Shown: in pieces, positions 4,719 to 41,375 of the stretch
Layout of the letters: every line of letters starts with the position of its first letter
How positions within the stretch are numbered: the first letter of the stretch is position 1
Source: Deferribacterales bacterium
GTDB lineage: Bacteria; Chrysiogenota; Deferribacteres; Deferribacterales; Geovibrionaceae
Direction of reading: 5' to 3'
NCBI GenBank assembly: GCA_050251945.1
Contig: JBFWLW010000001.1
Location: 320,001-384,000, forward strand
Length of the DNA: 64,000 nucleotides
The notes under the pieces: generated by a model
Told to the model about the DNA's origin: nothing
The model's database searches: none
The model's input: the letters and a program-made list of their open reading frames with translations, nothing else
Program-made: the position numbers and the translations under genes

Positions 4719-4749
4719 AAACAAAACGGGCGGGTTTGAAACCCGCCCT

Positions 4750-4890
4750 CAAACTGATGACAAAGTCAGTAAAATGCGAGATCGCGTCGTCGCATGCGCT
4801 CCTCGCGAAGACAAAAAAACGTCTCTGCGAGGGTTTTAACCCGAAGCAGTCTAATGTGAGTCTGTGTAAATTTAGTTTGTCAACAACCTG
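4750..4890 (+). mobile_element. MITE-like repeat, copy 1 (141 bp), between duplicated terminator-like palindromes 4727-4749 and 4891-4913
   Basis: Imperfect terminal IRs CAAACTGATGACAAA / TTTGTCAACAACCTG. Near-identical to the copy at 15954-16093. Flanking 23-bp direct repeats match at 20/23. Confidence 0.85.
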
Positions 4891-4917
4891 CGGGCGGGTT
4901 TTTAACCCACCCTCTTT

Positions 4918-5838
4918 TTATCTGCTTAAATCAACAGTTCCCGTAAGTTCGCTGAAATTCGATATATTGTTATCAGCCATATACTTATCAAGGTCATCTA
5001 TTATCTTTAACGGTATTTCCGGATCAATGAAATTCGCCGTACCAACCTGAACGGCAGACGCACCCACAAGCCCGAATTCCACAACATCACGCCAGTCTAT
5101 TATCCCGCCGATACCCATGATAGGGATATTTACAGTGCGGAACGCCTCGTGCACCATGCGGATGGCAACAGGCTTGATGGCAGGACCTGAAAGTCCGCCT
5201 GTCACGTTGTAAAGATGAGGTTTTTTCGTGTGTATGTTCACGGACATGCCCAGAAGAGTGTTTATTGCGCTGATAGCATCCGCCCCCGCCTGTTCGCAGG
5301 CTTTTGCGTAAACCCTTATGTTTGTTACGTTTGGTGACAGTTTCACCATAAGCGGTTTATTTTTAAGAGCTTTTTTGACGTTATAAGTAACTTCATAGGT
5401 CATTTTCGGGTCTGTACCGAACGCGATGCCGCCCTCTTTTATGTTAGGACATGAGATGTTCATCTCAAGCATATCAACGTCGGCATCGTCGAGGATGCGG
5501 GCAACTTCCACATATTCATCAATGGTTTTGCCCCAGAAATTGACAATTATCTTAGTGTCATACTTTCTCAGTTCAGGCAGTTTTTCATGAACGAATTTAT
5601 ATACCCCGACGTTTTGAAGCCCGATGGCATTCAGCATACCGGATGTGGTCTCCATTATGCGCGGCATGGGGTTTCCCACAGTTTCGCGCAGGGATATCCC
5701 TTTGACGGAAATTCCGCCTAACTTACTTATATCTATATGTTTCGCATACTCCAGACCATAGCCGAAAGTTCCGCTGGCAGTTATCACAGGGTTCTTGAAT
5801 TCTATTCCGCAAAAGACGGTTTTAAGTCTGTCAGACAT
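4918..5838 (-). CDS. pyrD: Dihydroorotate dehydrogenase 1B, catalytic subunit
   Basis: ASGTFGYG, NAIGLQN, NISCPN, KLSPN and GGLSGPAIKP. Confidence 0.95.
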   Translation of the reverse strand: MSDRLKTVFCGIEFKNPVITASGTFGYGLEYAKHIDISKLGGISVKGISLRETVGNPMPRIMETTSGMLNAIGLQNVGVYKFVHEKLPELRKYDTKIIVNFWGKTIDEYVEVARILDDADVDMLEMNISCPNIKEGGIAFGTDPKMTYEVTYNVKKALKNKPLMVKLSPNVTNIRVYAKACEQAGADAISAINTLLGMSVNIHTKKPHLYNVTGGLSGPAIKPVAIRMVHEAFRTVNIPIMGIGGIIDWRDVVEFGLVGASAVQVGTANFIDPEIPLKIIDDLDKYMADNNISNFSELTGTVDLSR

Positions 5839-5853
5839 AAAATATTCTCCAGA

Positions 5854-6633
5854 TCAGATTAGTTTGTCCCATGCTATCGTGGCGCCGTCAAATACGGGAC
5901 CTTCCACGCAGCAGCGCTTCTGCACTATTTCGCCGCCCTCTTTCACATAGATGATACAGCCAAGGCAGGCACCCAGACCGCATGCCATGCGTTCGTCAAG
6001 CGAAACCTCGACAGGAATATCGGCATTAACGCATATTTCGCTGACTGTCTGCAGCATCGGTTTTGGTCCGCAAGTGTATACCATGTCGTATGTTTCAACA
6101 TTTTCTTTGAATGGCAGAGTAACGTAGCCTTTAATTCCGGCAGAGCCGTCATCGGTTGTTACTATGAGATGGTCGGTGTTCTCTTTCAGTTCTTCAAGAA
6201 GCACAACGTCGTCAACAGTGCGCCCGCCGTAATACAGGTCAACCACACATCCGCGGTTTTTCAGTGTTTTGGCCAGCCAGTAAACGGGGGCTATGCCTAT
6301 ACCGCCTGCAACAAGAGCCACCCGTTTGTTTTCAAGCAGGGTGAAACGGTTGCCAAGGGGCGCGGAAAACTCTATCATACCGCTTTCGTGGAATTCACTG
6401 AGCAGCTTTGTTCCTTTGCCCACAACCATATACACAAGACTGAACTTGCCGTCTTTAACATCGGCAATGCCCAGAGGTCTGCGCAGAAGCGGGTCGTGAG
6501 TATAGTTCTGGCTGCCCGGTTTTATCATAACAAACTGACCGACGTGAGCCTGTGTAACAAACTCCTCGGATTTTATCTCAAGGAAAAAGTATTTGTCATT
6601 AAGCTGCTGGTTTTTAACGACCTTCCCTTTCAT
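5854..6633 (-). CDS. pyrK: Dihydroorotate dehydrogenase electron transfer subunit
   Basis: LRRP, GGIGIAP, CGPKPM and the MACGLGACLGC...C 2Fe-2S motif. Start moved to the ATG directly after the carB stop. Confidence 0.9.
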   Translation of the reverse strand: MKGKVVKNQQLNDKYFFLEIKSEEFVTQAHVGQFVMIKPGSQNYTHDPLLRRPLGIADVKDGKFSLVYMVVGKGTKLLSEFHESGMIEFSAPLGNRFTLLENKRVALVAGGIGIAPVYWLAKTLKNRGCVVDLYYGGRTVDDVVLLEELKENTDHLIVTTDDGSAGIKGYVTLPFKENVETYDMVYTCGPKPMLQTVSEICVNADIPVEVSLDERMACGLGACLGCIIYVKEGGEIVQKRCCVEGPVFDGATIAWDKLI

Positions 6634-6635
6634 TT

Positions 6636-9600
6636 TCAGCCTCTTTTGTAATATTCCTGAATGGGTGTGACTGTGAGTCCCTTCTGTCCTGCGGCGATGG
6701 CAACCATACACGCTTTCGCGGCCTCAACAGTTGTAACGTAAGGAACGCTGTAGCTCAGCATTGTCCTTCTGATGGATTCGCTGTCCAGTCTGGATTTTTT
6801 ACCCTCAGGGATATTGATAACAAAGGCTATTTCACCGTTCTTTATCTTGTCAACAACGTTGGGTCTTATGCCTTCGTGTACTTTTGCAAGTTTTTCGACC
6901 TCAAGCCCGTTCTCCCGCAGGAAGTTGTATGTTCCCGATGTTGAAACCAGTCTGAAGCCCGTTTTAACAAGTTCTCTGGCAACGCCGAGGATCTCAGATT
7001 TAACGGAATCCTTAACGCTGATAAATACATTACCGCTTTTAGGCAGTTTGTTGCCTGCGGCTATCTGTGCTTTGTAAAATGCGCTTCCGAAGTGCGAGTC
7101 GATACCCATTACTTCACCTGTGGATTTCATCTCCGGTCCAAGAACAAGGTCAGTTCCGGGGAATTTTACAAACGGGAACACAGATTCTTTCACGGTGAAG
7201 TAGTTGATATCCACCTCTTTGGTGAATCCGAGGTCTTTCAGTTTTGCACCTGCCATGACTTTTGCCGCCATTTTCGCAAGCGGGATACCTATTGTCTTGC
7301 TGACATAGGGAATTGTTCTTGATGCTCTGGGATTGACCTCAAGCATGTATATCTCTTCGTCTTTGATGGCATACTGGATGTTCATCAGACCGATGACTTT
7401 AAGCTCTTTGGCGATATTTCTGGTATGCTCAAGCAGTTGCGCGCGCGCAGAATCGCTTATGGTTCTGGACGGGATGGAACATGCGGAGTCGCCGGAGTGA
7501 ACGCCCGCTTCCTCGATATGCTGCATGATGGAACCTATCACAGTTATCTCGCCGTCGCTGATGGAGTCAACGTCCACCTCAGTTGCGTGCTGGAGATATT
7601 TGTCTATGAGAACGGGGTGTTCCTCGCTCGCCTTGACCGCGTACACCATATAGTTCTGGAGTGATTCGGTATCGTAAACTATCTCCATCGCGCGTCCGCC
7701 GAGAACGTATGAAGGGCGGACAACAACGGGATACCCTATTTCTTCAGCTATTCTGAACGCATCTTCCGCGTTCTTTGCGATGCCGTTGGGCGGCTGTTTG
7801 ATATTCAGTCTGGTTATCAGGTCTTTGAAACGCTCCCTGTCCTCTGCTATATCAATGCTGTCGGGTGATGTTCCAAGAATCGGCACACCTGCCTTTTCAA
7901 GCGGCACAGCCAGTTTAAGTGGCGTCTGACCGCCGAACTGCACGATAACGCCGAAAGGTTTTTCTTTATCAACAATGTTTAACACATGCTCTCTTGTAAG
8001 GGGTTCAAAATAGAGCCTGTCGGAAGTGTCGTAGTCTGTGGAAACGGTTTCAGGGTTACAGTTGACCATGATGGTCTCAAATCCCATCTCTTCCAGTGCG
8101 AAAGATGCATGAACACAACAGTAGTCAAACTCGATACCCTGACCGATACGGTTGGGACCGCCGCCGAGGATCATTATCTTTTTCCTGTCAGTGGGTTCCG
8201 CTTCACACTCTTTTTCATAGGTGCTGTACAGATATGGAGTGAAAGATTCAAATTCAGCGCCGCACGTATCCACGCGTTTATAGACCGCTTTGCCTCTTGT
8301 TTTCTCCCAAACATCAAGTTCTGTACAATTCATGAGTTTTGCCAGTCGTTTATCACTGAAACCCAGTTGTTTTGCTTTAAGAAACATTGCATCATCTATT
8401 GATGATATTGATATTTTTTTAAGTTCAGATTCAAAATCTATTATCTGTTTGATGTTGTCAAGGAACCACGGATCAATGAAGCAGAGTTCGTGAACTTCTT
8501 CAACTGAAAATCCGGCTCTGAAAGCCTCTCCGACATACCATAAGCGTTCAGCCGTGGGGCGTCTGAGGAGTGCTTTTATCTGCTCAAGAGCGGCTTCGGT
8601 CTTGCGTTCTTCATCGCTGAAAACCTCGTCAAAACCGGATTTACCTATCTCAAGCGAACTGATAGCCTTCTGGATGGATTCTTTGAAGGTTCTGCCGATA
8701 GCCATAGCTTCGCCCACGGATTTCATCTGAGTTGTCAGTGTGTTGTCCGCGCCGGGAAACTTCTCGAAAGTGAATCTGGGGTACTTGGTAACACAATAAT
8801 CTATCGTGGGTTCAAAAGATGCGGGAGTCTTAAGGGTAATATCGTTTTTAAGTTCGTCCAGAGTGTAGCCCACGGCGAGCTTCGCCGCTATTTTTGCTAT
8901 GGGAAAGCCTGTTGCTTTCGACGCCAGCGCCGAGCTTCTGGAGACTCTGGGGTTCATCTCAATGATGATCTGTTTGCCTGTCTTGGGGTCAACGGCAAAC
9001 TGCACGTTTGAACCGCCGGTATCAACGCCTATTTCGCGGATAACTGCGATGGCGGCGTTACGCATTATCTGATATTCTTTGTCGGTGAGCGTCTGTGCGG
9101 GAGCGACCGTTATACTGTCGCCAGTGTGTACGCCCATTGCGTCTATATTTTCGATGGAGCAGATGATAACGACGTTGTCGTTAAGGTCGCGCATGACCTC
9201 AAGCTCGTACTCTTTCCAGCCGAGAACGGATTCCTCCACCAGAATTTCTGTAACAGGTGAGGCTTCAAGTCCCCACTCCACATATTCTTTATACTCTTCC
9301 ATGTTATAGGCAACGTTTCCGCCTGTTCCGCCAAGCGTGAACGAGGGGCGGATGATGGCGGGGAAACCGATTTTGTCAATACAGTCAAGTGCATCCTGAT
9401 ATGTATTGACGACGTAACTTTCGGGCAGTGTCAGCCCAATCTTTTTCATTGCCTGTTTGAACAGTTCTCTGTCTTCCGCCTTGTCGATGGCATCAATTTT
9501 AGCGCCTATGAGTTCGACATTATATTTTTCAAGAACTCCGGCGCTGTGAAGGTCTTTCGCAAGGTTAAGCGCAGTCTGTCCGCCGACAGTGGGGAGTATT

Positions 9601-9854
9601 GCGTCCGGGCGCTCCTTCGCGATAACTTTTTCAGCCATCTCAACGTTAAGGGGTTCGATGTATGTAGCATCGGCTATTTCGGGGTCTGTCATGATGGTAG
9701 CAGGGTTGGAATTGATTAGGATAACCCTGTAACCCTCTTCTTTCAGTGCTTTAACAGCCTGAGTTCCCGAATAGTCAAATTCGCACGCCTGTCCGATGAC
9801 GATAGGTCCGGAACCTATTATCATGATAGACTTAATGTCTGTTCTCTTAGCCAA
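6636..9854 (-). CDS. carB: Carbamoyl-phosphate synthase large subunit
   Basis: [17 protein letters not shown], duplicated ATP-grasp halves and a C-terminal MGS domain. 1072 aa, TTG start. Confidence 0.97.
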
Positions 9855-9947
9855 AATATCCTCCGATGAACCGCTATGGGCAAAACTTCAATTTTCTATC
9901 AGATTTCGACCGTTTTTACAAGGTTATTGTGCGCGCGTGGCATTAAT

Positions 9948-10229
9948 TTATGCATTGCTCTCCTGAGGATTGTTTTTTACCTTTTTAACTTTCACAGGTT
10001 CTTCGTCCGTAAAGGGGGTTACGAGATACAGTTCTTCGACCTTAGCCCTTGCCCATGGCGTCTGGCGCAGAAATTTAAGGCACGACGGCACCGATTGATT
10101 TTTGATAAAGCATTTGATGGTGATAAGCTCGCCGAGTTTTTCCCAGCCGTAGTGCTTTGCAAGTCTGTTGACTATCATTTCCAGCGTGATTCCATGAAAC
10201 GGGTCTTTGTTTTTCAAGTTTTCAGTCAT
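9948..10229 (-). CDS. VF530/DUF2132 family small DNA-binding-like protein
   Basis: DPFHGITLE, YGWEKL and SCLKFLRQTPWARAKVEELY. Confidence 0.8.
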   Translation of the reverse strand: MTENLKNKDPFHGITLEMIVNRLAKHYGWEKLGELITIKCFIKNQSVPSCLKFLRQTPWARAKVEELYLVTPFTDEEPVKVKKVKNNPQESNA

Positions 10230-10249
10230 ATTAATCCTTTATGTTATTC

Positions 10250-10279
10250 AAAAAAAAGCCCTGAATTAACAGGGCTTTT
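10250..10279 (-). terminator. Rho-independent terminator
   Basis: AAAAGCCCTG-loop-CAGGGCTTTT hairpin, with a long U tract on the minus strand. Confidence 0.75.
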
Positions 10280-10282
10280 AAG

Positions 10283-10819
10283 TTAAGCGTATTTTTCAAG
10301 AAGAAACATACACGACATTTTTAAGGGATCCGTCAGTGCATGATGTTTTCCGGTCGTATCCTCTTTGACCATAACAGATATCTGATGCATGGAAATTCCT
10401 GTCAGTTCAGAGAGAGTTGAAAGCCCTACGTTAGCTTTTTTAAGCTCGTCCAGAAGCTCTTTCAACGGTGTAGTTTTCACAAAAAACTGTATTTCATTTG
10501 TGGATTGAAGCTTTTTTCTGTCTAATTTTGTTTTGCTGGCAAAGACCCAAGGAGTATAGATGTAGGTCAGACCCAAAGCGGCGGCGTGTTTACAGAAAAG
10601 CTCTTTCGAGTTTTCGCAACAGCATTTATAGCCGATGGGATCGCTCCCGACATCAAGGGTCACCTCATAATCCCCATGATTCCCTTTGATCGTGCCTTTG
10701 ATAACGGAACCGTCAACTGAACAGTTATGGAATTTCCCGACATAATTCTCCGCTCTCTGCAAATTAATGCCGGAGCAGATGTTTTTGAGCTGTTCTTCCG
10801 TCAGTTTGATTAGCTGCAT
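10283..10819 (-). CDS. SWIM zinc-finger domain protein with possible C-terminal HTH
   Basis: CCC...FCKHAAAL SWIM pattern. AGGAGG RBS in front of MQLIK. Confidence 0.7.
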   Translation of the reverse strand: MQLIKLTEEQLKNICSGINLQRAENYVGKFHNCSVDGSVIKGTIKGNHGDYEVTLDVGSDPIGYKCCCENSKELFCKHAAALGLTYIYTPWVFASKTKLDRKKLQSTNEIQFFVKTTPLKELLDELKKANVGLSTLSELTGISMHQISVMVKEDTTGKHHALTDPLKMSCMFLLEKYA

Positions 10820-10897
10820 CGGGGTTGCCTCCTCTAAAGTTGATGTATATATCAATTAAACCTCACAATAACATATAAAGCAAATATAATTGCACCT

Positions 10898-13171: not shown

Positions 13172-13624
13172 TTAAAACATGTTCAGAGCGGAAGATTCGT
13201 TTCCTGAGAAAACTTTATGCACATCAAGGATTATGACCATTTCGGTTTCCGTTTTCGCAACACCCTTAATGTATTTTGTGTCGGCGCCTGTGGATGCGCT
13301 TGGGGCTTTATCAACGACGTCGCTGCTGACACGAAGAACATCTTCAACGTTATCAACTATAAAGCCTATCTTGCGCCCACTGAGGTTAACAACTATGATA
13401 CGCGTGGAGTTTGTAAAATCAGACGCCATAAGCCCGAGTTTTTTTCGCAGATCCACAATAGGAATGACCCTTCCCCGGAGATTTATGATACCCTCAACAA
13501 ATGAAGGAGCCTTGGGTACGGTGGTTATGTCCACCATGCGCAGAATCTCTTCAATATCCATGATATCTATGCCGTATTTGTCTTCCGCAAGAAGCAGGCG
13601 GACATATTGTTTATATTCGGACAT
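13172..13624 (-). CDS. cheW: Chemotaxis coupling protein CheW
   Basis: ITTVPKAPSFVEGIINLRGRVIPIVDLR, GFIVDNV. Start placed at MSEY after a GAGG RBS. Confidence 0.9.
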   Translation of the reverse strand: MSEYKQYVRLLLAEDKYGIDIMDIEEILRMVDITTVPKAPSFVEGIINLRGRVIPIVDLRKKLGLMASDFTNSTRIIVVNLSGRKIGFIVDNVEDVLRVSSDVVDKAPSASTGADTKYIKGVAKTETEMVIILDVHKVFSGNESSALNMF

Positions 13625-13682
13625 GGATAACCTCGTTGTATTTTTCTGCAATCATATCAGTTTAATCGGCAGATTGCAAATA

Positions 13683-14051: not shown

Positions 14052-14976
14052 GATGCACCTCAAAATATCTGTTATCTATTAATCTTGCTTTTCCGACATA
14101 TACGGCAAGCGCCATAACGAAATCCTCTCCTGTGCCGTTTACGGAGACCAGTGTCTCCGGATGTACAGTTTCAATGTAATCTATCTTCGTGTGCGGATGG
14201 CTCAAGATGAAATCCGCGATTTTGTCCTTTATTGTCTTCGTATCTTTAACACCCTCTTTCAGCAGGTTTTCAACTATTTTGAAACTGCCGCTGAGAGCCA
14301 GTGCCGATGTGCGTTCGTCACCTTTAAGATAGACGTTTCTGGAACTGAGCGCCAGCCCGTCAGTTTCGCGGACGATTGGCATACCGACAACCTCAACGTC
14401 CATGTTATAGACGTTTCTGGAACTGAGCGCCAGCCCGTCAGTTTCGCGGACGATTGGCATACCGACAACCTCAACGTCCATGTTCAGGTCTTTGACCATA
14501 CGTTTTATGACCTGCAATTGCTGGTAATCCTTCGAGCCGAAGTAAGCTCTGTCGGGATTTACAATGTTGAACAGTTTTGTTACCACCGTTGCAACTCCGG
14601 CGAAATGCACAGGTCTTGTTATACCGCAAAGAACCTCTGTTATGCCGGAAAGTTCAACTTTCGTACAAAATCCTTCGCCATACATTTCGGCAGGTGCGGG
14701 ATAAAAGATGATATCCGCATTGTTCTTTTCCAGAAGCGCACAATCGCTTTCAAAATCTCTGGGATAAGCCGAGAGATCCTCAGCGGGTCCGAACTGCGTC
14801 GGATTAACAAAGATGCTGACCACCGTCACATCATTATTCTTTACGGATTCACGCACCAGAGACATATGCCCTTCATGCAGAAAACCCATTGTCGGTACAA
14901 GCCCGACAGATCGTCCCGAAGACTTAATTTTCTTTATTTCAGCTTTAATATCAGCTATTTTATTAAATATTCTCAT
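14044..14976 (-). CDS. panC: Pantoate-beta-alanine ligase, containing a 26-aa internal tandem duplication
   Basis: [37 protein letters not shown] (present twice) and RLIDN. Confidence 0.93.
14329..14484. repeat. Perfect 78-bp tandem duplication (14329-14406 = 14407-14484) inside panC
   Basis: Base-by-base identical units ATAGACGTTTCT...TCCATGTT. Confidence 0.95.
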
Positions 14977-15814: not shown

Positions 15815-15887
15815 GATTACAGACGCAAGACATGGCAAAAATTGAACATTTTTGATTTGCAGTGTCTCGGTCCGAAGATCCAAGCAA
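15815..15887 (-). ncRNA. Probable pan RNA motif (cis-regulatory leader of panB)
   Basis: Leader reads GCTTGGATCTTCGGACCGAGACA...TGTCTTGCGTCTG and starts just after the predicted promoter. It resembles the pan motif as I recall it; not checked against a model. Confidence 0.55.
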
Positions 15888-15891
15888 GAGA

Positions 15892-15920
15892 ATAATAGGT
15901 AATTAAAGAACTTACGTCAA
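15892..15920 (-). promoter_or_regulatory. Putative sigma-70 promoter of panBCD
   Basis: Minus-strand TTGACG-N17-TATTAT. Confidence 0.55.
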
Positions 15921-15953
15921 GATAAAAAAAAGAGGTTTTTTTCAGAATCTCTC

Positions 15954-16093
15954 CAGACCGATGACAAAATCAGTAAAATGCAGGATCGCGTCGTCGCATG
16001 CGCTCCTCGCGAAGACAAAAAACGTCTCTGCGAGGGTTTTAACCCGAAGCATTCTAATGTAAGTCTGTGTAAATTTAATTTGTAAACAACCTG
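15954..16093 (+). mobile_element. MITE-like repeat, copy 2 (140 bp), between duplicated palindromes 15930-15953 and 16094-16117
   Basis: Ends CAGACCGATGACAAA / TTTGTAAACAACCTG. Flanking 24-bp direct repeats match at 22/24. Confidence 0.85.
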
Positions 16094-16135
16094 AAGAGGT
16101 TCTTTTCAGAACCTCTCAGTGATATGTATTAGAAA

Positions 16136-16672
16136 TTAGAAAGTGGGAGGTGTGTCTACCCAGAGAGCAACAGCGGGCTTATCAGTTCTGTTGCGTATCT
16201 TATGAGGCATGTTTGAGCTAAAATAGATGCTGTGTCCTGTCGGCAGATGATATTCGTCAGCACCGATAACAACACATATTTCGCCTTCGATTACATAACC
16301 GAATTCCTCACCAACGTGCTGGTAATATTCGGAACCTGTCTCGCCGTACGGGTCAAGCTCGATAAGCATAGGTTCCAGTTTTCTGTTAACAAGCTTTGAG
16401 GCTATGAAAGACATGGAGATACTTTTGTTTTTGAACACCTTGTATTCGCCGGGTTCAAAGACGTTAACGATGTTGCGTTCGTCCTCAAAAAGCTCACTGA
16501 TGGTGGTTCCGAGCGCAAAACAAATCTTCTTCAGAGAAGCTATAGAGGGAGAGTTCTTTCCGTTTTCAATCTGGCTGATGAAACTTTTAGTGAAACCGGT
16601 CTTCTGAGAAATATCCTCAAGCGTCATGCCAAGTTTCTTTCTTATCTCTCTTAACTTAATACCATAAGGCAT
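16136..16672 (-). CDS. XRE-family HTH regulator with C-terminal cupin domain (PuuR/SutR-like)
   Basis: LREIRKKLGMTLEDIS...SQIENGKNSPS HTH. HVGEEFGYVIEG and PHKIRN cupin motifs. Confidence 0.85.
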   Translation of the reverse strand: MPYGIKLREIRKKLGMTLEDISQKTGFTKSFISQIENGKNSPSIASLKKICFALGTTISELFEDERNIVNVFEPGEYKVFKNKSISMSFIASKLVNRKLEPMLIELDPYGETGSEYYQHVGEEFGYVIEGEICVVIGADEYHLPTGHSIYFSSNMPHKIRNRTDKPAVALWVDTPPTF

Positions 16673-16889
16673 AATAACACCCCTCAAAAATAATTAAGAT
16701 TATATCTCAAAAAAATGTAGGCTGTCAACATCTTTCGTTAATAATTAATCTTTTATTTTATGTGATCTACTAATAGATTAAACCATATTGTTCTATTTTA
16801 ATTAATACCTCGTCAAATATTACTTTAACAGTTGACTGAAAATGAATTGATGAATATCCTATTTTAAATATTAACGGACAGGTGATTAC

Positions 16890-31344: not shown

Positions 31345-31390
31345 GGGACATTGAAAAATATCATAAATAAACGATATTTGCACGGAGATT

Positions 31391-32118: not shown

Positions 32119-32159
32119 CAGGATTGTTTCCTTCTCAGCTTTATTACGGACACAGTATA

Positions 32160-32495: not shown

Positions 32496-32498
32496 AAT

Positions 32499-32927
32499 TT
32501 ATCCGGCAAAGTTGATGGATCTGACCTCTGCCTCCTGAGATTCCGGTCTTGCGGCTGTGCCCTCTTCTTTCTGGACAACCTCGCGCCATGCCTCTCTCAG
32601 GTTAGACATAAGTTTTATCACACTCTCAACCTTGTCTTTACTTTTCTCCCTGTTTGCCTCTATAAGCTGCCAAACCATGAAATCATAGAGCCTCAGGAGG
32701 TTTTTTGAAATATCTCCCGCGTCCATGTTCAGGGTGGACATCAGTTCATAGATAATATTCTGGGCTTTCATGATGTTGTTATGAGAGTCCTGAATATTTT
32801 TGTCGTCAATAGCTTTAACAGCAATCCGCATAAACTTGATAGCTCCATCATACAGTAAGAGAACAAGTTTTCCTTTGGTGGCTCCTTCAACTTCCTGTTT
32901 GATGTAGTTCTTGTAAGGGCTTTGCAT
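32499..32927 (-). CDS. fliS: Flagellar export chaperone FliS
   Basis: LVLLLYDGAIKF, KAQNIIYELMSTLN, NLLRLYDF and LREAW. Confidence 0.93.
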   Translation of the reverse strand: MQSPYKNYIKQEVEGATKGKLVLLLYDGAIKFMRIAVKAIDDKNIQDSHNNIMKAQNIIYELMSTLNMDAGDISKNLLRLYDFMVWQLIEANREKSKDKVESVIKLMSNLREAWREVVQKEEGTAARPESQEAEVRSINFAG

Positions 32928-32951
32928 AGATTAAAACTCCTATAGTATACA

Positions 32952-35642
32952 TTAAGATGACGATGATGTCACGCTGCTTAATGCGGATGACTGAGACTGA
33001 GCATCAGATATTGCCTTTTCCATAGCCGTGAACTGCGCCCAGTAGCGTTCAAGCTCCTGCTGCACCCTGTCTTCCTGATCGGTTATTTTTGTGGACAGCT
33101 TATTCAGGTAAGACTGCAGGGTACCGTTCGTTCCTATCTTAGCGCCTATCATACCATCTGAATCGGTATACGCATCAAGCACATAATCACCGAAATATCT
33201 TGCCCAGCCGACTTCATTCTCTATCTGCTGCTGCATCTGCGCTTTCTCTTTGGTGGTTGTAGCATCATCTGTATCTAAATCGGATGAATTCGCAAAAAAT
33301 GTATATACATCTTTAGGATTATTTGTAAGTGCGTCCATAAAAGTTTCGTTGCCTTCAAGAGCGGCATATATTTCATCGTAATCGGTGGACAGCGTAACAA
33401 GGTAACCGTACACCTCTTTTGAAGTGTCACCGGCGCCTGCAACCTCTATTCCGAGATCAGACATATCGTTTATGGAGCTTGTTATCCCCGGACGTTCCGC
33501 AAAGAAAGATTTTCTGAGGTTGGTATCGAGGTTGCGAAGTTCCGAGCTTCGTCTGATTATTTTATAGCTGTTCAAAAGTTCGTAATTTTCCTGATAAGTA
33601 GCGATATCATCTTCGCTCATGCTCTCTTTGTCTGTGTCGGTGAGGTATTCGATGTATTTATCCTCTTCGTCGTCATCAACTTCAGGGGTGTAAAGTTTTT
33701 CCATCAGCACGTTATAGTGCTGTATCAGCTTAGCGAACGCCGCCACCCCCTTTGAAGGGTCAACACTTACGCCTATAGTGGTGGATTCGTTGCTTTCTGT
33801 GTTCAAAGTTAAAGTCAGTCCGGCAACAACGTCGCTTATGACGTTTGTATCTCTGATGTAAGTGGTTCCATCCACAGTAAAGACAGCCCTGCTGCCCTCT
33901 TCGCCTATTGTAGTGGTTTCAGTGGTGTCGCTGGTAAGATTGAACGCTTCCAGAATGTTACTGGTATCGGATGCCGCGCCCACAGTGATAGGGTCTATGG
34001 TATTTGATTTTATTTTAACTTTGTCGGAAGCGGAGTCATAGCTCATCGTAACTTTTGCACCGGATTTGTTAACTTTGTCTATGAGTGTCTGAATGGTGTC
34101 TACAGCAGTATCGACATAAATTGATACGCCGTTTATCGTAAATGTTCCGCTTGCAGGATAGGTGGTAAGCCCTGCGTTTGACAGCTTGGTGGTGGTGCTT
34201 ATGCTTCCCGCCGTACTGCCGACAGTGTATGTCGTATCGCTCGTGGTGTCGAATTTAAAAAGCTTGAGCAAACTGCTGGTATCGCCGTAATCGCCCAGAG
34301 TGATGCTTTTTGCTCCGCTCTCGTTTGATTCCAGCGTGAACTTTTTGGTTGTTGAATCATATGTTGCCGTAACACCGGCACCTGAGCTGTTGATCATACC
34401 CAAAACGTCATCGACGCTGAGTTTCGTGTAATCGCTGATAGTTATTGCAACGTCGTTTATTGTAAAAGTTCCGTTCAGATCGGTGCCGGCGGCAACAGAG
34501 AAACCGGCGTTCTCAAGTCCTTTGGTTGTCGTATTGAGCGTACCTGATGTCACAGCGTCAGACACATATGATGAGTATGTCGATGCAGAAACCTTAAGCG
34601 ACGCGTCCTGCGCAAATACGAACGTTCCGGTTGTGATTGTGCCTGACTGTTCGATAGTTGCTCCCGGTACAAGACCCGAGATTGAACTGGCAAGTTTATT
34701 CTGCAAATTTTCTGCTGTGTCAGCAAGGTGATATTTATTTATTTTGGTCACCGTTGAAAGCGTCGGTGAAGACGAAGAGGAAAAACCGAGTTCATCCCTT
34801 AAAGTTGTGCTGTCGTCACCGCCAAATGCAATGTTGAAATCGTCTATGGTAGTTTCATACATGGAAAAATTCCATGCGGATGATGTGCTGTCATAATCGG
34901 CTCTCATGGTTACATACTGCACATTATTGGTTCCCATGGAAGCGTTAAGAGCGTTGTTCAATGTATCTTCAATATTGGTGGATACAACGTTGATATCCTG
35001 ACCTGACGAGCCGAAAGTCCCGCTTATTGTAACGGACTGGTCATTTCCGTCCGCATCAGTATATGTAAACTGGAGGTCGCCGGAAACGTCTGCTGTTAAG
35101 GCTCCGTTAGCATCAACACCGGCAAATGTTGAACCTGCCTGTTTTGAGACAGATCCGATGTTGCTGACCTCAAAAACATCCGTAGAAAGATATTGTGAAG
35201 ATACCGTCGAAATCGTAACGGTATGCTTTCCCTCAAGGGATTCGGTTGCTCTGCCGGATATTTTTGTAATATTTGCTCCGGCAGTCACAAGACCCACACG
35301 GGTATATGAACTCAATGCTTCGGAGTTTTTCGCCAGTTTTGAAACTTTCAGCGAATGTGTGCCGATATCGGCTTCTGTCGTTGCGGTGGCTGTGGCAACG
35401 GATTCATTAGTGGAGGATACCTTTTTGCTCAGAAACGTTGATTCAAGTTTAAGCGACAGAAGATCGGATGACATATCCCCCATCATCTCGTTGATTGAGG
35501 TATATGTATTTTTCTCCAGTGCTTTATATGAATACTGTCCGTTCAGCCTGTCCACAGCGATATTCGCCTGTTGTGTGAGCTGTTCAACCAGTGCGTTTGT
35601 ATCCAGCCCAGAAACAATGCCGCCAACCTGTATTCCGGCCAT
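32952..35642 (-). CDS. fliD: Flagellar filament cap protein FliD (896 aa, unusually long)
   Basis: N-terminal GIVSGLDTNALVEQL, C-terminal RYWAQFTAMEKAIS, adjacent to fliS. Confidence 0.9.
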   Translation of the reverse strand: MAGIQVGGIVSGLDTNALVEQLTQQANIAVDRLNGQYSYKALEKNTYTSINEMMGDMSSDLLSLKLESTFLSKKVSSTNESVATATATTEADIGTHSLKVSKLAKNSEALSSYTRVGLVTAGANITKISGRATESLEGKHTVTISTVSSQYLSTDVFEVSNIGSVSKQAGSTFAGVDANGALTADVSGDLQFTYTDADGNDQSVTISGTFGSSGQDINVVSTNIEDTLNNALNASMGTNNVQYVTMRADYDSTSSAWNFSMYETTIDDFNIAFGGDDSTTLRDELGFSSSSSPTLSTVTKINKYHLADTAENLQNKLASSISGLVPGATIEQSGTITTGTFVFAQDASLKVSASTYSSYVSDAVTSGTLNTTTKGLENAGFSVAAGTDLNGTFTINDVAITISDYTKLSVDDVLGMINSSGAGVTATYDSTTKKFTLESNESGAKSITLGDYGDTSSLLKLFKFDTTSDTTYTVGSTAGSISTTTKLSNAGLTTYPASGTFTINGVSIYVDTAVDTIQTLIDKVNKSGAKVTMSYDSASDKVKIKSNTIDPITVGAASDTSNILEAFNLTSDTTETTTIGEEGSRAVFTVDGTTYIRDTNVISDVVAGLTLTLNTESNESTTIGVSVDPSKGVAAFAKLIQHYNVLMEKLYTPEVDDDEEDKYIEYLTDTDKESMSEDDIATYQENYELLNSYKIIRRSSELRNLDTNLRKSFFAERPGITSSINDMSDLGIEVAGAGDTSKEVYGYLVTLSTDYDEIYAALEGNETFMDALTNNPKDVYTFFANSSDLDTDDATTTKEKAQMQQQIENEVGWARYFGDYVLDAYTDSDGMIGAKIGTNGTLQSYLNKLSTKITDQEDRVQQELERYWAQFTAMEKAISDAQSQSSALSSVTSSSS

Positions 35643-35668
35643 AGGTCAACCTCCTGAGGATATCAGTC

Positions 35669-35696
35669 TATTCGGACCGATTTCTTCCAATCTTTA
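35669..35696 (-). promoter_or_regulatory. Putative sigma-28 (FliA) promoter of fliD
   Basis: Minus-strand TAAA-N16-TCCGAATA, upstream of an AGGAGG RBS. Confidence 0.55.
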
Positions 35697-35739
35697 GAAA
35701 CAAATTGCCCAAACATCAAAAATGTATTAAGCAATAGGT

Positions 35740-36375
35740 ATGAAAAATATTATCGTTTACGACTGCGACGGCGTGCTGTTTAACAGCACCATGGCGGTTA
35801 GGGGTTATTATGACTTCGTATTTGAAAAATACGGCGTCCCTGTTATCGACTGGGAAAACCCTTCCCTTGTAAAACTCGCCATGATGGGAACCAACGAAGG
35901 AATAATCAGACATTTCGTCAGCGACGAAAAACTGATAGCCGAAATGCTTGAATTCGCCATGAAAATGAACTTTAAGATGTTCATCGACCTCATGAAACCT
36001 AACCCAAACATACACGACACCCTCGAAAAACTCCGGAATTCCGGACGCAGTCTCGCTGTTTTCACAAACAGAGGCATATCGCTTTCATACCTTCTGGAAC
36101 ATTTCGGCATGGGAAATTTTTTCTCCTACACCGTCACATGCATGGATGTAGCAAAACCGAAGCCAAACCCTGAAGGGCTTTACAAAATAATGGAATATTT
36201 CGGGAGTAAAAAAGAGGAACTGCTGTTCATCGGCGATTCAATGACAGACTATCTTGCGGCAAAATCCGCAGACGTGCATTTCCTCGCATATGAGAACGAA
36301 CTTGAGAACAGCAGGATAATCAGTGACCACGCAGAGGTATTCGATTATCTGTGTACAAGCTCTTTCAAAGCCTGA
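35740..36375 (+). CDS. HAD-family hydrolase
   Basis: YDCDGVL, KPKPNPEG and FIGDS. Confidence 0.85.
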   Translation: MKNIIVYDCDGVLFNSTMAVRGYYDFVFEKYGVPVIDWENPSLVKLAMMGTNEGIIRHFVSDEKLIAEMLEFAMKMNFKMFIDLMKPNPNIHDTLEKLRNSGRSLAVFTNRGISLSYLLEHFGMGNFFSYTVTCMDVAKPKPNPEGLYKIMEYFGSKKEELLFIGDSMTDYLAAKSADVHFLAYENELENSRIISDHAEVFDYLCTSSFKA

Positions 36376-37178
36376 TAAACGGAATAAGGCGTGTTCAGAG
36401 TTTCGGGACCGGTACCCAGAGCTATCTTAAGCTTGTTATCGCCGTGAAAATCGCTTCCGCCTGAAACTCCGAGACCAAATTTTTCTGCCATGGCAAGATA
36501 GAAGGGGCGTCTTTCAGGAGCAACCTCCGAGCAGAATACTTCAATGGCATCAAGCCCTTTCTCTTTATATTCTGCAAGAAAAGTTTCCGTGGAATCGTCT
36601 TCAAGGCGCAGGCTGACAGGGTGCGCCAGAACTGTTATGCCGCCTGCTCCGTGTATCATAGCCGCCGCATCTTCAAAACTGAGCCTTGCCTTGTCTGCAT
36701 AAAGAGGTTTGCCTTTCGCAAGATATTTATCAAAAGCCTCCTGCATGGTTGAGACAACATGACATTTTATAAGAAATTTTGCTATATGCGGTCTGCCCAG
36801 TTCTCCTTCGTTGCCGTCTGAAACGTCGTTAAGCGTCACCTCGCGCCCGAGCAGATTGCTGACGGATGTCAGAATTTTCTCATTTCTTGTTCTGCGGGCA
36901 CTTTTAAGAAAATTCAATGTCTCGTTCAGCTTTTTTTCACGATAATCCAGAAAAAGCCCCACAAGGTGAAATGTTCCTTTGTCATAATCTATACTGAGTT
37001 CTGTGCCCGCCACACGCTCAACTTTTGTTTCATGGGAGAAGAAATCAGGCAGCCCGTCAACAGTGTCGTGGTCTGTCAGCGCCAGCACCTCAACACCTCT
37101 TTTTTCAGCATATTCAAGGAGTTTTGCAGGAGAAAACGTACCGTCAGAATAAGTTGAATGACAATGAAGATCTATCAT
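36345..37178 (-). CDS. PHP-domain phosphoesterase (TrpH/YciV-like)
   Basis: DLHCHSTYSDG, LTDHD, GRPHIA, LAHP and GGSDFHG. Confidence 0.88.
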   Translation of the reverse strand: MIDLHCHSTYSDGTFSPAKLLEYAEKRGVEVLALTDHDTVDGLPDFFSHETKVERVAGTELSIDYDKGTFHLVGLFLDYREKKLNETLNFLKSARRTRNEKILTSVSNLLGREVTLNDVSDGNEGELGRPHIAKFLIKCHVVSTMQEAFDKYLAKGKPLYADKARLSFEDAAAMIHGAGGITVLAHPVSLRLEDDSTETFLAEYKEKGLDAIEVFCSEVAPERRPFYLAMAEKFGLGVSGGSDFHGDNKLKIALGTGPETLNTPYSVYQALKELVHR

Positions 37179-37225
37179 GAAAAACTCCTTGTTATTATCA
37201 TTTTAACAATATATTATGTCTTATT

Positions 37226-37609
37226 ATGTATAGATTCCAGTATATACTTTACAGAATTTGTGTCAACGTTATTGGGATAGGTTTTGCATCGCTCGTTATG
37301 GAGAGCATCAATGTAAAATCATACGGCGCTCTGATTGCGGCCTCACTTATCCTTACGTTTTTTCAGGCTTTTCTGCGCCCGCTCCTGTTTTTTCTGACAC
37401 TTCCGTTTCAGATACTAAGTCTGGGCATAGGATATATGATAATCAACTCCATGCTCCTGCTTCTGACGGCACACTTTATTGAAGAACTTGTTATAAAAGG
37501 TTTCTGGGCGGCATTTCTCGGCGCTATAATCATCAGTATAGTAAATCTGGTGTTCGATTCTTTTTCATCCCGCTCCGCCGTCAAATTTTATTACCGCAAA
37601 GGCGAATAA
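37226..37609 (+). CDS. YvlD/phage holin family 4-TM membrane protein
   Basis: LRPLLFFLTLPF.ILSLG and GFWAAFLGAIIISIV. Confidence 0.75.
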   Translation: MYRFQYILYRICVNVIGIGFASLVMESINVKSYGALIAASLILTFFQAFLRPLLFFLTLPFQILSLGIGYMIINSMLLLLTAHFIEELVIKGFWAAFLGAIIISIVNLVFDSFSSRSAVKFYYRKGE

Positions 37610-37613
37610 TTGA

Positions 37614-37910
37614 ATGAACAAAAAGCTGTATAAGGTCGTCTTTATAGACGAAGATAAAAAGGTTCAGACCATACACGCAAGCTATCTGAACCCGTCATCA
37701 TTCCTTGGTCTGATAGAGATATCGGACATCGTTTTCATAGGTCAGTCGGATATAATCATCTCTCCGGACGACGGAAAACTGAAAGAGGTCTTCAAAAACG
37801 TCGAGCGCTCGTATATTCCTCTGAATTATATCATACGCATCGACGAAATTACTATGCAGAAAGAAACTCCGGTTATAAGGCTATACAGTGAAACTAAAGC
37901 TGATTCATAA
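37614..37910 (+). CDS. DUF1820-like protein
   Basis: LYKVVF...FLGLIEI...SYIPLNYIIRIDE pattern. Confidence 0.65.
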   Translation: MNKKLYKVVFIDEDKKVQTIHASYLNPSSFLGLIEISDIVFIGQSDIIISPDDGKLKEVFKNVERSYIPLNYIIRIDEITMQKETPVIRLYSETKADS

Positions 37911-38940
37911 ATACATTCTGAAAGAACTGCTGCCGATATTTTTACTCGGCAACATTTTTTTTATACTGCTTCTGCTTCTGGACAAACTTGTCGACCTGTC
38001 AGACCTTTTTTTCACAAAAAGCGTCCCCGGCTGGCTGATAATTCAAACGGTTATTTATTACCTGCCGTCTTTCTTCGTAATAACCATACCTACGTCGGCA
38101 CTGCTCGCCGTTATTTTCGTCTTCGGAAGGATGTCTTCTGAGAGCGAAATAATCGCTATGCGGTCATTCGGCGCAGGCAAAAGATTTTTCCTTTTGCCCG
38201 CAATGATATTTGCTGTCGGAGTATTTATTTTGGGTGTAGCTATGAGTGCTTATCTTATGCCTAAAGGAAGCTTTCTGGCGGCTGAGAACGTACTTAAAAT
38301 GGCAAAACTTGTATCCATCCGGGATATCAAGGAAAAAGAGCTTTACGAAGAGCTTAAGGGTTATGTTTTTTACGCTGAGAAGAAAATAAGCGATACCAAA
38401 TACGCAAGACTCATGATCATTGATAAATCAAAGAACTCCGTCATAACAGCGGAAACCGCCAAGATCATCCCGACAGGTGACGCGGGGCTTTTGCTTGAAC
38501 TTTCAAACGGACGAATAGCAACCATCCGCGAAGACAATATGCACTCGACCATTAATTTCGATAAATTTGTCATCAATGCCCCTCTGACAGAGGCATCCAG
38601 AGTGACAATAAAAACTGAACGTCTGATGCCAATGGGTGAATTGAGGGCAAACTTCAACGAAGACCCCATATACAAATTTGAATATTCCAAACGTTTCTCT
38701 ATGCCGTTTGCGGCAATCATAATGTGCGTGTTCGGCATGAGCATCGGAATGTTCTTTCACAGAAGCGGAAAAACAATGGCGATCCCCTCAACGGTCTTCA
38801 TTGTCGTCATATACAACATGATGTTCCTTGTTGCGCAGAATATCGCAGCCGAAGGCAGTATCGAACCGTTCTTTGCGGCATGGGTGCCGAACGTATTCTT
38901 CGGCATTATAAGTATTTTCGCTTACGAGAGAGTTCTATGA
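37888..38940 (+). CDS. lptF: LPS export ABC permease LptF
   Basis: KYILKEL, GRMSSESEIIAMRSFG and AAWVPN. Paired with lptG. Confidence 0.85.
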   Translation: MKLKLIHKYILKELLPIFLLGNIFFILLLLLDKLVDLSDLFFTKSVPGWLIIQTVIYYLPSFFVITIPTSALLAVIFVFGRMSSESEIIAMRSFGAGKRFFLLPAMIFAVGVFILGVAMSAYLMPKGSFLAAENVLKMAKLVSIRDIKEKELYEELKGYVFYAEKKISDTKYARLMIIDKSKNSVITAETAKIIPTGDAGLLLELSNGRIATIREDNMHSTINFDKFVINAPLTEASRVTIKTERLMPMGELRANFNEDPIYKFEYSKRFSMPFAAIIMCVFGMSIGMFFHRSGKTMAIPSTVFIVVIYNMMFLVAQNIAAEGSIEPFFAAWVPNVFFGIISIFAYERVL

Positions 38941-40025
38941 TATCCAAATTTGATAAATATATCATATCTTTATTCCTTAAATATACTATTGTGGTTCAGA
39001 TTGTTGTAGGGGTTATTTCTCTGCTGGCAAGTGCCGCAATGCACACTGACCTGATAGATAAATACAAAGTCGGCATTGTTGAAGTGCTAATTTTTGACAT
39101 GATGAAGATACCGTATCTGCTTTATACCACCATGCCGATGTCCATTGTTATTTCGACAATGCTCGTGATACTGACACTTATCAAAAACAACGAACTGATG
39201 GCATACGTTTCCCTCGGCGGGAAGATACGCAATCTGATTCAGCCGTTTCTTATATCCGGCGTAGTTGTCGCCCTGCTTCTTGTCCTTACGGCAAACACAA
39301 TCAACCCGAAAGTAATGTACATGCGGGAAAAATATGCTGCGGAGATCATATATAAAAAAGAGATGGACATCCGCCCTTCCCTTACCAACATATGGATGAA
39401 ACTTCACGGCAATAAATTCATCCACATAACCGCCCTTGACCCTGACAAGATGGAATTTCACTATGTCACCGAATATACTCTGAACGATAAACTGCAGGTC
39501 GAATCAATTGAAACATACAACTCTGCAAAAAAAGACGGCGACAAGTGGAAGCTGTTCAATCAGAAGAAATACGACATGATGAACGTTCCCAAAAAGACCT
39601 ATGACGTCAGAAATATAACTATGACAAAACCGATATTTGACGAACTTTCAAAAATGCCGTTCCTTAAACCGCAGTTCGTATCCATCGGTGATATATACAA
39701 GGTTGCCGAGGTTATGAAAAATCAAAACGTCAATACTTCTAAATATATGCTGCAAATATACAAAATATTCGCTCACGCGATAAGCGTTCTGGTCATAATA
39801 CTTGTGATCTTCCCGCTTTGCGTGGACTTTAACAGAAACCACTCATACATAAAAGCTGCGGCAAAATCTTTAGGGGTCGGTTTCGCATTCTGGATGAGTG
39901 TCGCATCATGCTCTTCTCTGGGTAAGAACGGCGTTCTCAGCCCTTTCATGTCGAGTTTTCTGCCTATAATCCTGTTCGCATGTCTCGCGGTTTACATCAT
40001 CTACAGGCGTGAACATGCAATGTAG
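38937..40025 (+). CDS. lptG: LPS export ABC permease LptG
   Basis: Start ATG overlaps the lptF stop (ATGA). FDKYI, KNNELMA...G and SFLP. Confidence 0.85.
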   Translation: MISKFDKYIISLFLKYTIVVQIVVGVISLLASAAMHTDLIDKYKVGIVEVLIFDMMKIPYLLYTTMPMSIVISTMLVILTLIKNNELMAYVSLGGKIRNLIQPFLISGVVVALLLVLTANTINPKVMYMREKYAAEIIYKKEMDIRPSLTNIWMKLHGNKFIHITALDPDKMEFHYVTEYTLNDKLQVESIETYNSAKKDGDKWKLFNQKKYDMMNVPKKTYDVRNITMTKPIFDELSKMPFLKPQFVSIGDIYKVAEVMKNQNVNTSKYMLQIYKIFAHAISVLVIILVIFPLCVDFNRNHSYIKAAAKSLGVGFAFWMSVASCSSLGKNGVLSPFMSSFLPIILFACLAVYIIYRREHAM

Positions 40026-40106
40026 TTTTATTGAACATATTACAGTTTGACTTTACAGGCATATTGGAATAATATTCGGAGTTCACTAATATAAGGAGCG
40101 TTCAAA

Positions 40107-41183
40107 ATGGCAAAAATAGCAGTTTTACCGGGTGACGGAATCGGACCCGAAGTGATGCAGCAGGCTATTAAGGTTCTGAACAAAGTATCTGAAAAATATA
40201 ACAAAACATTTGAATTCAGCTTTGCCGACATAGGCGGTATAGCCATAGACAACCACGGCACACCCCTGCCCGAATCCACACTGGCACTTTGCGAACAGTC
40301 AGAAGCTATCCTGTTCGGCTCTGTGGGCGGTCCCAAATGGGAAAACCTTCCCCCTGCCCAACAGCCCGAAAGAGGCGCCCTGCTCCCCCTGCGCAAGCAT
40401 TTCGGTCTGTTCTGCAACATCAGACCCGTAAAGATATTCCCTTCCCTTATTGATGCTAGCTCGCTTAAAAACGAACTCATCCCCGAGGGACTTGATATAG
40501 CCTTCTTCCGCGAACTTACAGGCGGTATCTACTTCGGTCAGCCCAAAGAGATAAACGCTGAACGCACCATGGGTATGGATACTATGCTCTATACAAAACC
40601 CGAAGTTGAGCGTATTGCAAAACTCGCCTTTGAAGCCGCCAGACTGCGCAGAAACAAAGTCACCAGCGTGGACAAGGCAAACGTACTCATGTCCTCTATC
40701 CTTTGGCGTGAGACCGTTACAGAGGTTCACAAAAGCTATCCCGACGTTGAGCTGAACCACATGTATGTTGACAATGCCGCAATGCAGCTCGTTCGCTGGC
40801 CCTCCCAGTTTGACGTTGTAGTGACAGAAAATATGTTCGGCGACATCCTTTCCGACGAAGCCGCTATGCTTACAGGTTCTCTGGGCATGCTTCCTTCCGC
40901 TTCTATCAACGAGTCCAACTTCGGACTTTACGAACCCATCGGCGGAACGGCACCAGACATAGCAGGACAGAACATAGCTAACCCTATCGCACAGATAATG
41001 TCAGCGGCTCTTATGTGCCGTTATTCTCTGGGCTTGGATGCTGCGGCAACGGATATAGAGAACGCTATTCAGAAAGTTCTGGACGAAGGTTACAGAACAG
41101 GCGATATCTTTAACAAGAACAAGACAGGTCAGACACTGGTCAAAACAGACAAGATGGGCGACCTTATCTCTGAAAGAATATAA
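40107..41183 (+). CDS. leuB: 3-isopropylmalate dehydrogenase
   Basis: [26 protein letters not shown] and [19 protein letters not shown]. Confidence 0.96.
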
Positions 41184-41210
41184 CTTAAAAAGGCGACCTT
41201 CCGGTCGCCT

Positions 41211-41352
41211 CAGACTAATGACAAAGTCAGAAAAATGCGAGATCGCGTCGTCGCATGCGCTCCTCGCGAAGACGTAAATTGCTGTCATTGCGAGGAAGCT
41301 GTAGGCTGACGCGGCAATCTCATTAACTTTTAACCAGTTTGTCAATAACCCG
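41211..41352 (+). mobile_element. MITE-like repeat, copy 3 (142 bp, variant right half), between perfect 20-bp duplicated palindromes 41191-41210 and 41353-41372
   Basis: AGGCGACCTTCCGGTCGCCT on both sides. Ends CAGACTAATGACAAA / TTTGTCAATAACCCG. Confidence 0.88.
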
Positions 41353-41375
41353 AGGCGACCTTCCGGTCGCCTTTC

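Follow-up and report, generated by a model that had tools for sequence, protein, structure and literature searches.

MITEs with IS1182-type ends and REP-pair interiors in duplicated terminator-like hairpins of a Deferribacterales genome

A window of 64,000 nucleotides on contig JBFWLW010000001.1 of a Deferribacterales bacterium (GCA_050251945.1) contains three short elements without genes, each of which lies between two copies of a different hairpin at the 3' end of a gene. This raises the question of which enzyme inserts DNA into hairpins, how a complete hairpin becomes duplicated, and what the inserted DNA consists of. The source genome (G000) is a 3.07-Mb draft in 26 contigs with a GC content of 46.6%, and it belongs to the same genus as the congener G002; five congeners (G001, G002, G004, G005, and G006) were compared at the window sites. 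[quoted passage not shown]

Duplicated hairpins at gene ends

An earlier note on the window had described three elements with 15-bp terminal inverted repeats (TIRs), located at the gene pairs purB/pyrD, panB/XRE, and leuB/DUF4405 between flanking repeats that are identical at 20/23 (copy 1), 22/24 (copy 2), and 20/20 (copy 3) positions. Elements, repeats, and neighbors were all found as described (Table 1). The three copies had also been regarded as homologous, which applies to copies 1 and 2, which are alike along their whole length, whereas copy 3 has only its initial ~63 bp and the far end in common with them. Their common orientation is real, but it is an accident of the window, because genome-wide there is no orientation bias with respect to transcription (17 vs. 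18) or GC skew (47 vs. 38).

A paired-end search of the genome revealed 76 candidate pairs, and after a relaxed search and the resolution of overlaps at least 86 elements of 107–267 bp were obtained, which form subfamilies of 30, 12, 9, 8, 6, 6, 2, and 2 copies plus 11 single elements. With no genes, 15-bp TIRs, and many copies they have the features of prokaryotic MITEs. Among 41 genomes, full-length DNA matches were confined to this genus, and the exact end-pair pattern was present in four of the 68 genomes of the phylum, all from a single genus; the copies of G005, which are longer or imperfect, escape this pattern. No Rfam model reached its gathering score within the window, and therefore the elements represent no known RNA family. 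Their fold is stable (z about −7), which is due to the repeats and has no bearing on function.

A flanking duplication, defined as a direct repeat of at least 14 bp with at least 70% identity, is present at 70 of the 86 copies, compared to 106 of 7310 mismatched flank pairs. The duplications have a length of 16–33 bp with a mode of 20 bp (20/70), and 22 are perfect. Nearly all of them comprise an entire hairpin located where a gene has its 3' end. This genome-wide tabulation of the flanks supports the proposal of the earlier note that a whole hairpin of variable length is duplicated as the target site. A flank that folds with −8 kcal/mol or better is present at 86% of the elements, versus 7.6% of random 30-mers, and the duplication is symmetric on the hairpin axis: in the 33 near-perfect cases (17–26 bp) the first base pairs with the last base in 24, and to within one base in 31. 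At one locus of the source genome (C6:50982-51281) two elements stand in tandem and a single hairpin occurs three times, between them and on either side, and therefore a duplicated hairpin has been used again.

The hairpins are found where genes end. Based on home-made gene calls, convergent gene pairs surround 47 of 84 elements, compared to 176 of 1369 background gaps, divergent pairs surround 2 of 84, and in 72 of 82 cases a stop codon lies within 80 bp of the element. The suggestion that terminators are targeted is supported, and at the pattern level the sites resemble intrinsic terminators, with a GC hairpin and a U-tract at the 3' end of a gene. Of 229 strong terminator-like hairpin sites, about 70 (~31%) carry an element, and the occupied hairpins are shorter than the free ones (median 20 vs. 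22 bp). The targets had been called unrelated, and their sequences are indeed diverse, but a start with AGG is favored (50 of 88 occupied vs. 48 of 159 free hairpin copies).

Empty sites are present in the congeners. At the site of copy 1, a single hairpin is found in G002, G004, and G005 (3/5), G006 contains a different hairpin between REPs, and the gap in G001 is 1.6 kb longer and outside the alignment. At the site of copy 2, the hairpin is single in G002, G005, and G006 (3/5) and missing in G001, and G004 carries an independent element in the opposite orientation with its own duplicated hairpin. At the site of copy 3, G004, G005, G006, and G001 have a single hairpin (4/5), and the leuB hairpin of G002 holds an IS1182 element in the opposite orientation, which is split by a contig break and flanked by a 20/20 duplication. 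The relatives were checked for two hairpins at empty loci, and a single hairpin was found in most aligned congeners. The reverse case was also observed, in that several element sites of relatives are occupied by one hairpin in the source genome. Copies 1 and 2 are skipped by DNA contigs of relatives, which were counted merely as additional empty sites.

It had further been suggested that the mismatches between the duplicates reveal the age of an insertion. This did not hold: the mismatches are unrelated to how far a copy has diverged from the consensus of its subfamily (Spearman −0.03, p 0.86, 47 copies), and copy 1 is 99% identical to the consensus and has three mismatches, copy 3 96% and none. 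The mean divergence is 8.1% between two duplicates versus 4.0% per element copy, and the mismatches fit age in the average only; single copies are not datable by them. The loops of the duplicated hairpins change twice as fast as the stems (13.8% vs. 6.9%). Loop inversions inside terminator hairpins were seen at duplicated and empty sites (G000 C3:14542-14683 and C5:47878-48017; L164; L097). The possibility that the flanks are inverted instead of direct repeats was rejected, as only two of 48 imperfect pairs agreed better as reverse complement.

IS1182-type ends and a REP-pair interior

The sister species G002 and G004 carry a multi-copy IS, located at contig ends. Its left end is CAGATTGTTGACAAA in G002 and CAGGTTGTTGACAAA in G004, its right end, read inward, is CAGACTGATGACAAA, and both ends match the MITE ends at 14–15 of 15 positions. 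According to these matches the left end named in the earlier note is the right end of the IS. The family assignment is based on a full-length homolog, which scored 487 bits with NF033551 (cut-off 270); NF033551 is also the best model for a 129-aa fragment from G002, which as a fragment stays below the cut-off. All four sister-IS sites for which both flanks are available have 20/20 hairpin duplications. In addition, 79 related loci from other taxa were analyzed, 52 of them with both flanks, and 47 of the 52 have a duplication of at least 12 bp; these duplications of full-length relatives are 13–52 bp long, and 45 of the 47 are palindromic end to end. The MITEs and the IS thus have the same footprint. 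Judged from the sequences, the IS1182 element of the two sister species is the likely parent of the elements, in line with the earlier guess of an IS1182 parent.

In four subfamily members, MITE and IS are similar over about 15 bp and no further, where the comparison with the IS right end was read by eye, and the IS interior gave no blastn match. The elements do not qualify as internal-deletion derivatives of IS1182, because no subterminal or internal IS sequence is kept. As had been claimed, the elements are non-autonomous and no transposase is present in the window, and none was found across the genome. The DUF772 plus DDE gene of an autonomous IS1182 was found neither in the elements nor in the genome, and PF05598, PF13751, PF01609, and PF01797 as well as tblastn and blastn searches with IS parts gave no match in the source genome. 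The missing transposase and the mean divergence of 4% suggest that the elements are now inactive in the source genome.

The targeting of hairpins by IS1182 members is already known. The ISBspe1-like clade of this family (NF033551; NC_013792.1) shares the CAG...CTG 15-bp ends, an ISBspe1 copy sits, like these MITEs, in a duplicated hairpin, there of 20 bp, and the G002 fragments are 58–60% identical to the ISBspe1 transposase. Two IS1182 members on Klebsiella plasmids have the same ends and footprint. Unlike the ISBspe1 clade, the elements described here are gene-less, have nothing but the 15-bp ends in common with it, and contain REP DNA in their interior. The 2015 review by Siguier and colleagues reportedly names members that duplicate the whole stem-loop. 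For IS1272 and TnSha1, structure-directed insertion into hairpins has been described, including terminators confirmed by RNA-seq and sites that were re-used in both orientations (PMC5678879, PMC4923244), and both papers refer to Siguier et al. (2015) for members that target palindromes. IS1272 deletes the hairpin without a duplication, whereas the hairpin is duplicated by the elements described here; duplicating the entire stem-loop is pathway b of Wan et al. in the same IS1272/TnSha1 literature. IS1630 of Mycoplasma fermentans, a member of the IS30 family, also duplicates variable inverted repeats of 16–26 bp (Calcutt, 1999; PMC3317919), but it is autonomous and has other ends and a transposase of another family. 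Two side observations may be added. A 2.5-Mb genome of the order Deferribacterales (G024; L030, L036, L042-L050) contains 46 DUF772 matches with ends unlike those of these MITEs. In one Cloacimonadales genome (L094-L108), the target of an IS1182 relative is not a terminator but a 14-bp hairpin that lies within a repeated element, with duplications of 13–14 or 51–52 bp.

The less ordinary part is the presence of a REP pair between IS1182-type ends. The nature of the interior, by its sequence a REP pair and not an IS remnant, had been overlooked in the earlier note. A pair of CGTC/TGTC-tagged palindromes with the tags inward is present in 79 of 86 interiors, an unrelated pair of C-run/G-run palindromes in six, and a few interiors are mosaic or carry extra inserts. 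A profile of the CGTC/TGTC type detected 313 units in the genome and none in the reversed-genome control. Paired elements contain 127 of the units, and the other 186 are spread over 140 loci elsewhere; the end motif is nearby at 35 of these 140 loci (chance 5.8%), and 22 of 28 free dimers have inward tags. With a terminal tag, a short imperfect palindrome, dimers, and an intergenic location, the cargo has the properties of CGTC-tagged REPs, the units of which begin with CGTC/TGTC and form dimers as well (PMC3733652). In that survey the inward arrangement of the tags is described as rare, and REP dimers inside longer palindromes are noted in two species.

Both REP types border nuclease genes in relatives. 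The first borders small GIY-YIG genes at 6/9 loci by profile, compared to 0/7 for UvrC-size controls, and a related REP variant was seen by eye at a seventh small GIY-YIG locus. The products have ~96–106 aa, and the arrangement is repeat-gene-repeat. The second type borders DUF559 genes at 4/4 loci on at least one side and at three on both sides, and such loci resemble a repeat-gene-repeat arrangement around a PD-(D/E)XK-type nuclease. A published link of repeats to GIY-YIG genes is provided by the Ssn nucleases with NTS/SRM repeats (PMC11893778), and a table of that paper contains a Seleniivibrio genome with an ssnA homolog and a chance-level SRM count. The cargo resembles SRM in that it borders small single-domain GIY-YIG genes, but it differs in that it does not fit the published SRM pattern, which has 13 matches in the genome and none inside the elements. 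No small GIY-YIG gene was found in the source genome, a PDB search with a small GIY-YIG protein gave no match, and a literature search for DUF559 genes with palindromic repeats retrieved nothing relevant. Because PF01797 (Y1 transposase) has no match in the genome and the tags are CGTC/TGTC, the cargo does not qualify as REP doublets forming hairpins (REPINs) with a REP-associated tyrosine transposase (RAYT).

The DUF559 gene of the source genome (G000:C4:8080-8670, L200) lies between C-run/G-run REPs, as is the case at L197, L198, and L199, and L198 has a long tandem REP array. The REP pair downstream of the source-genome gene has one good and one degenerate end and no duplication. The locus was considered as a possible birthplace of the C-run/G-run cargo; the relatives differ across the whole gap. 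Of the seven genomes with this gap (G000:C4:8030-8690 and the orthologs L242-L247), five contain differing REP types in it and two have no REP there, and the gap represents a REP hot spot.

Proposed insertion mechanism and alternatives

We propose that REP pairs were captured by a shell of IS ends, and that an IS1182 DDE transposase would act in trans on the ends of the resulting MITEs, as the shared ends and footprint suggest. It would attack the extruded cruciform and link the ends of the element to both hairpin feet, and gap repair would then copy the whole hairpin, which corresponds to pathway b of Wan et al. In addition to the hairpin itself, lengths of about 20 bp and starts with AGG are preferred.

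Other explanations can be weighed against this proposal. Insertions are tolerated in intergenic 3' regions, and hence the insertion might have been untargeted, with only the terminator copies surviving selection; however, in 31 of 33 cases the borders of the duplication lie no more than one base from the hairpin feet, and survival alone cannot set such borders, which leaves this idea barely credible. The whole unit might also be spread by the REP machinery, i.e., the small GIY-YIG or DUF559 nuclease, with the IS-like ends as passengers. The genes bordered by the cargo REPs in relatives, the 140 REP loci outside paired elements, and the retained DUF559 gene would fit with this. Yet the duplication follows the ends and not the REPs, as it was found at 65 of 86 paired elements, at 10 of 103 TIR-less REP loci, and at 26 of 300 random places, i.e., at chance level without TIRs. 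In addition, two unrelated REP types have the same ends and footprint, the footprint of the elements equals that of the IS, and neither a small GIY-YIG nor a Y1 transposase gene was found in the genome, so that we regard this explanation as highly improbable.

An in-place conversion, in which each element is an IS copy with its interior replaced on site by a REP pair and the short form is immobile, receives some support from the occupancy of the sister-IS sites, because six of eight hold an element or a remnant in the source genome, compared to ~31% (70/229) of the terminator-like hairpins (p 0.012). The orientation, however, is opposite at four of the six shared sites (one inferred from the surviving end), and these sites are read more simply as hot spots, as described for TnSha1 (PMC4923244). 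Furthermore, the members of the subfamilies of 30, 12, 9, 8, 6, and 6 copies share non-IS spacers with up to 99–100% identity at unrelated sites, and no IS interior is left anywhere in the genome; in-place conversion therefore is very unlikely. Less easily dismissed, though still unlikely, is a sequence ruler, in which the transposase reads AGG...CCT half-sites ~20 bp apart on the duplex and needs no extruded hairpin. The mode of 20 bp, the 20-bp duplications of the sister IS, and the enrichment of AGG starts point in this direction, but the lengths of 16–33 bp here and 13–52 bp in relatives remain palindrome-symmetric, and the entire stem is palindromic and diverse in sequence. Such a ruler would alter only the recognition step.

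The insertions would have consequences for the neighboring genes, for which the earlier note had assumed that both retain a terminator, which is true only in part. Behind the stop codon comes the adjoining hairpin and then the end of the element, while the T-tract is left out of the duplication: in tandem contexts the mean number of T within 8 nt is 2.0 after the near and 5.6 after the far hairpin copy. The U-tail is therefore usually carried by the far hairpin, as at copies 1 and 3, with copy 2 as an exception. The transcripts would thus cross the element and end at the far, U-tailed hairpin, and those of convergent genes would overlap across the element. A decay of the near hairpin in tandem contexts was considered and not borne out.

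Several points weigh against our interpretation. The duplication test was failed by 16 of the 86 copies. Each of the four sister-IS duplications has a length of exactly 20 bp, which is also the mode of the MITEs, and therefore a length preference exists beside structure. The sister IS are broken by contig ends, and the two ends were paired through their flanks. Neither an IS1182 gene nor a remnant was found in the 26 contigs of the draft source genome, and no empty shells (28–106 bp; ~65 bp expected), which would order the capture of the REPs, were found. At copy 2 the near hairpin scores as a terminator, and among 28 tandem contexts the weaker hairpin is more often the far copy than the near copy (13 vs. 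4, p 0.09). Lastly, no transposition was seen.

The features of the window are compiled in Table 1. As written, copy 1 has an end of the IS right-end type on its left and one of the IS left-end type on its right side. Two further features of the window are side observations. The panC gene contains an exact in-frame tandem duplication of 78 bp (26 codons, window 14329-14484), which is either recent or an assembly artefact. The conserved leader of panB (15859-15920, minus strand), ten bases from the far hairpin of copy 2 and just below a sigma-70-like promoter (15920-15892), has a weak match to the pan motif (23.7 bits, gathering score 36.2, E 0.1), in which the second hairpin alone is convincing.

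Table 1. Elements, hairpin duplicates, and neighboring genes in the 64,000-nucleotide window (IRL and IRR, left and right inverted repeat)
Feature	Position	Strand	Remarks
purB (adenylosuccinate lyase), upstream of copy 1	3279..4718	+	TIGR00928 above cut-off
Left hairpin duplicate, copy 1	4727..4749	.	U-tailed hairpin for pyrD (minus strand); single in G002, G004, G005
MITE copy 1, 141 bp	4750..4890	+	subfamily 0 (30 copies)
Terminal repeat, IS1182 IRR type, copy 1	4750..4764	+	14/15 to G002 IS right end
CGTC/TGTC-type REP unit 1, copy 1	4779..4813	-	tag inward
CGTC/TGTC-type REP unit 2, copy 1	4820..4852	+	tag inward
Terminal repeat, IS1182 IRL type, copy 1	4876..4890	-	15/15 to G004, 14/15 to G002 IS left end
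Right hairpin duplicate, copy 1	4891..4913	.	U-tailed hairpin for purB; one stem change
pyrD, convergent neighbor of copy 1	4918..5838	-	NF005574 above cut-off
Left hairpin duplicate, copy 2	15930..15953	.	far copy for XRE gene; holds both mismatches vs. G002
MITE copy 2, 140 bp	15954..16093	+	subfamily 0; REP units 15984-16017 (-), 16023-16055 (+)
Right hairpin duplicate, copy 2	16094..16117	.	intact; terminator-like score uses T-rich letters of the element end
XRE-cupin regulator	16136..16687	-	copy 2 sits in its 3' hairpin
leuB, upstream of copy 3	40107..41183	+	TIGR00169 above cut-off
Left hairpin duplicate, copy 3	41191..41210	.	U-tailed hairpin for DUF4405 gene
MITE copy 3, 142 bp	41211..41352	+	subfamily 1 (12 copies); REP units 41240-41274 (-), 41283-41320 (+)
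Right hairpin duplicate, copy 3	41353..41372	.	U-tailed hairpin for leuB
DUF4405 gene, convergent neighbor of copy 3	41376..41618	-	

BIME-1 of Escherichia coli and its possible use of IS1182 ends

A first pattern for the end pair had no match in metagenomes. A metagenome scan revealed at least 120 loci, with 46 clusters among the matches listed, and a flanking duplication at 35 or more loci. Some of the loci have a REP-like cargo, many have none, and some are chance matches; therefore, a REP cargo recurs but is not required. Other MITE families have the same ends and hairpin duplications and unrelated structured interiors (L271 cluster, L289/L322, L306, L343, L360/L366), and CTAG-like flanks in place of hairpin duplications were seen at L272, L290, and L338.

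The largest cluster among the matches listed comprises at least 37 loci, many of them the same site, and consists of two GTAG-type REPs and a linker that is conserved. We take it to be the bacterial interspersed mosaic element (BIME) BIME-1 of E. coli, a label that follows from the published description and the REP consensus; no record feature names BIME-1. E. coli K-12 has 68 matches to this cluster at E 1e-15, of which the best 30 were analyzed. The unit is a 152-bp REP pair plus linker, and the ends of the consensus of these 30 are identical to the G002 IS ends at 14/15 and 15/15 positions. A hairpin duplication is present at 11 of the 30 copies (null 4/870), and on a given side a strong hairpin is present at more than half of them, versus 11% of random windows. 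Flanking repeats of BIME-1 were reportedly noted in the 1990s. The cluster fits the description of BIME-1 (RIB/RIP), with GTAG-type REPs and an IHF-binding linker (PMC3333891, PMC2817692, PMC1187871), and the BIME-1-like copies are far more decayed than the elements described here. In the available parts of these three papers BIMEs are tied to RAYT, and IS1182 ends are not mentioned. IS1182 is not mentioned either in the available parts of two MITE reviews (PMC10969869, PMC3184786). A literature search, in which older and subscription papers were poorly covered, retrieved no report of IS1182-ended MITEs with a REP cargo or of IS1182 ends at BIME-1.

We lean towards the view that IS1182 ends are a reusable shell, which takes REP pairs from unrelated nuclease systems (GIY-YIG, DUF559, RAYT) to terminators, and that BIME-1 would be an old IS1182-ended MITE that owes its spread to an IS1182 transposase rather than to TnpA-REP alone. 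If this is true, the IS1182 origin would explain why BIME-1 is found in single copy, present or absent, at gene ends, and a long-open question on a textbook repeat of E. coli would become testable. For the known habit of the family, the genome described here adds numbers, namely 70 footprints dated by comparison, sites that are empty, hot spots used by IS and MITEs alike, and an occupancy of ~31% of the strong terminator-like hairpins. The cargo joins two classes of selfish DNA that are usually kept apart, and offers a route by which REPs may spread without an enzyme of their own. And a transposase guided to gene ends by the shape of a hairpin would be a potential tool for gene-sparing integration.

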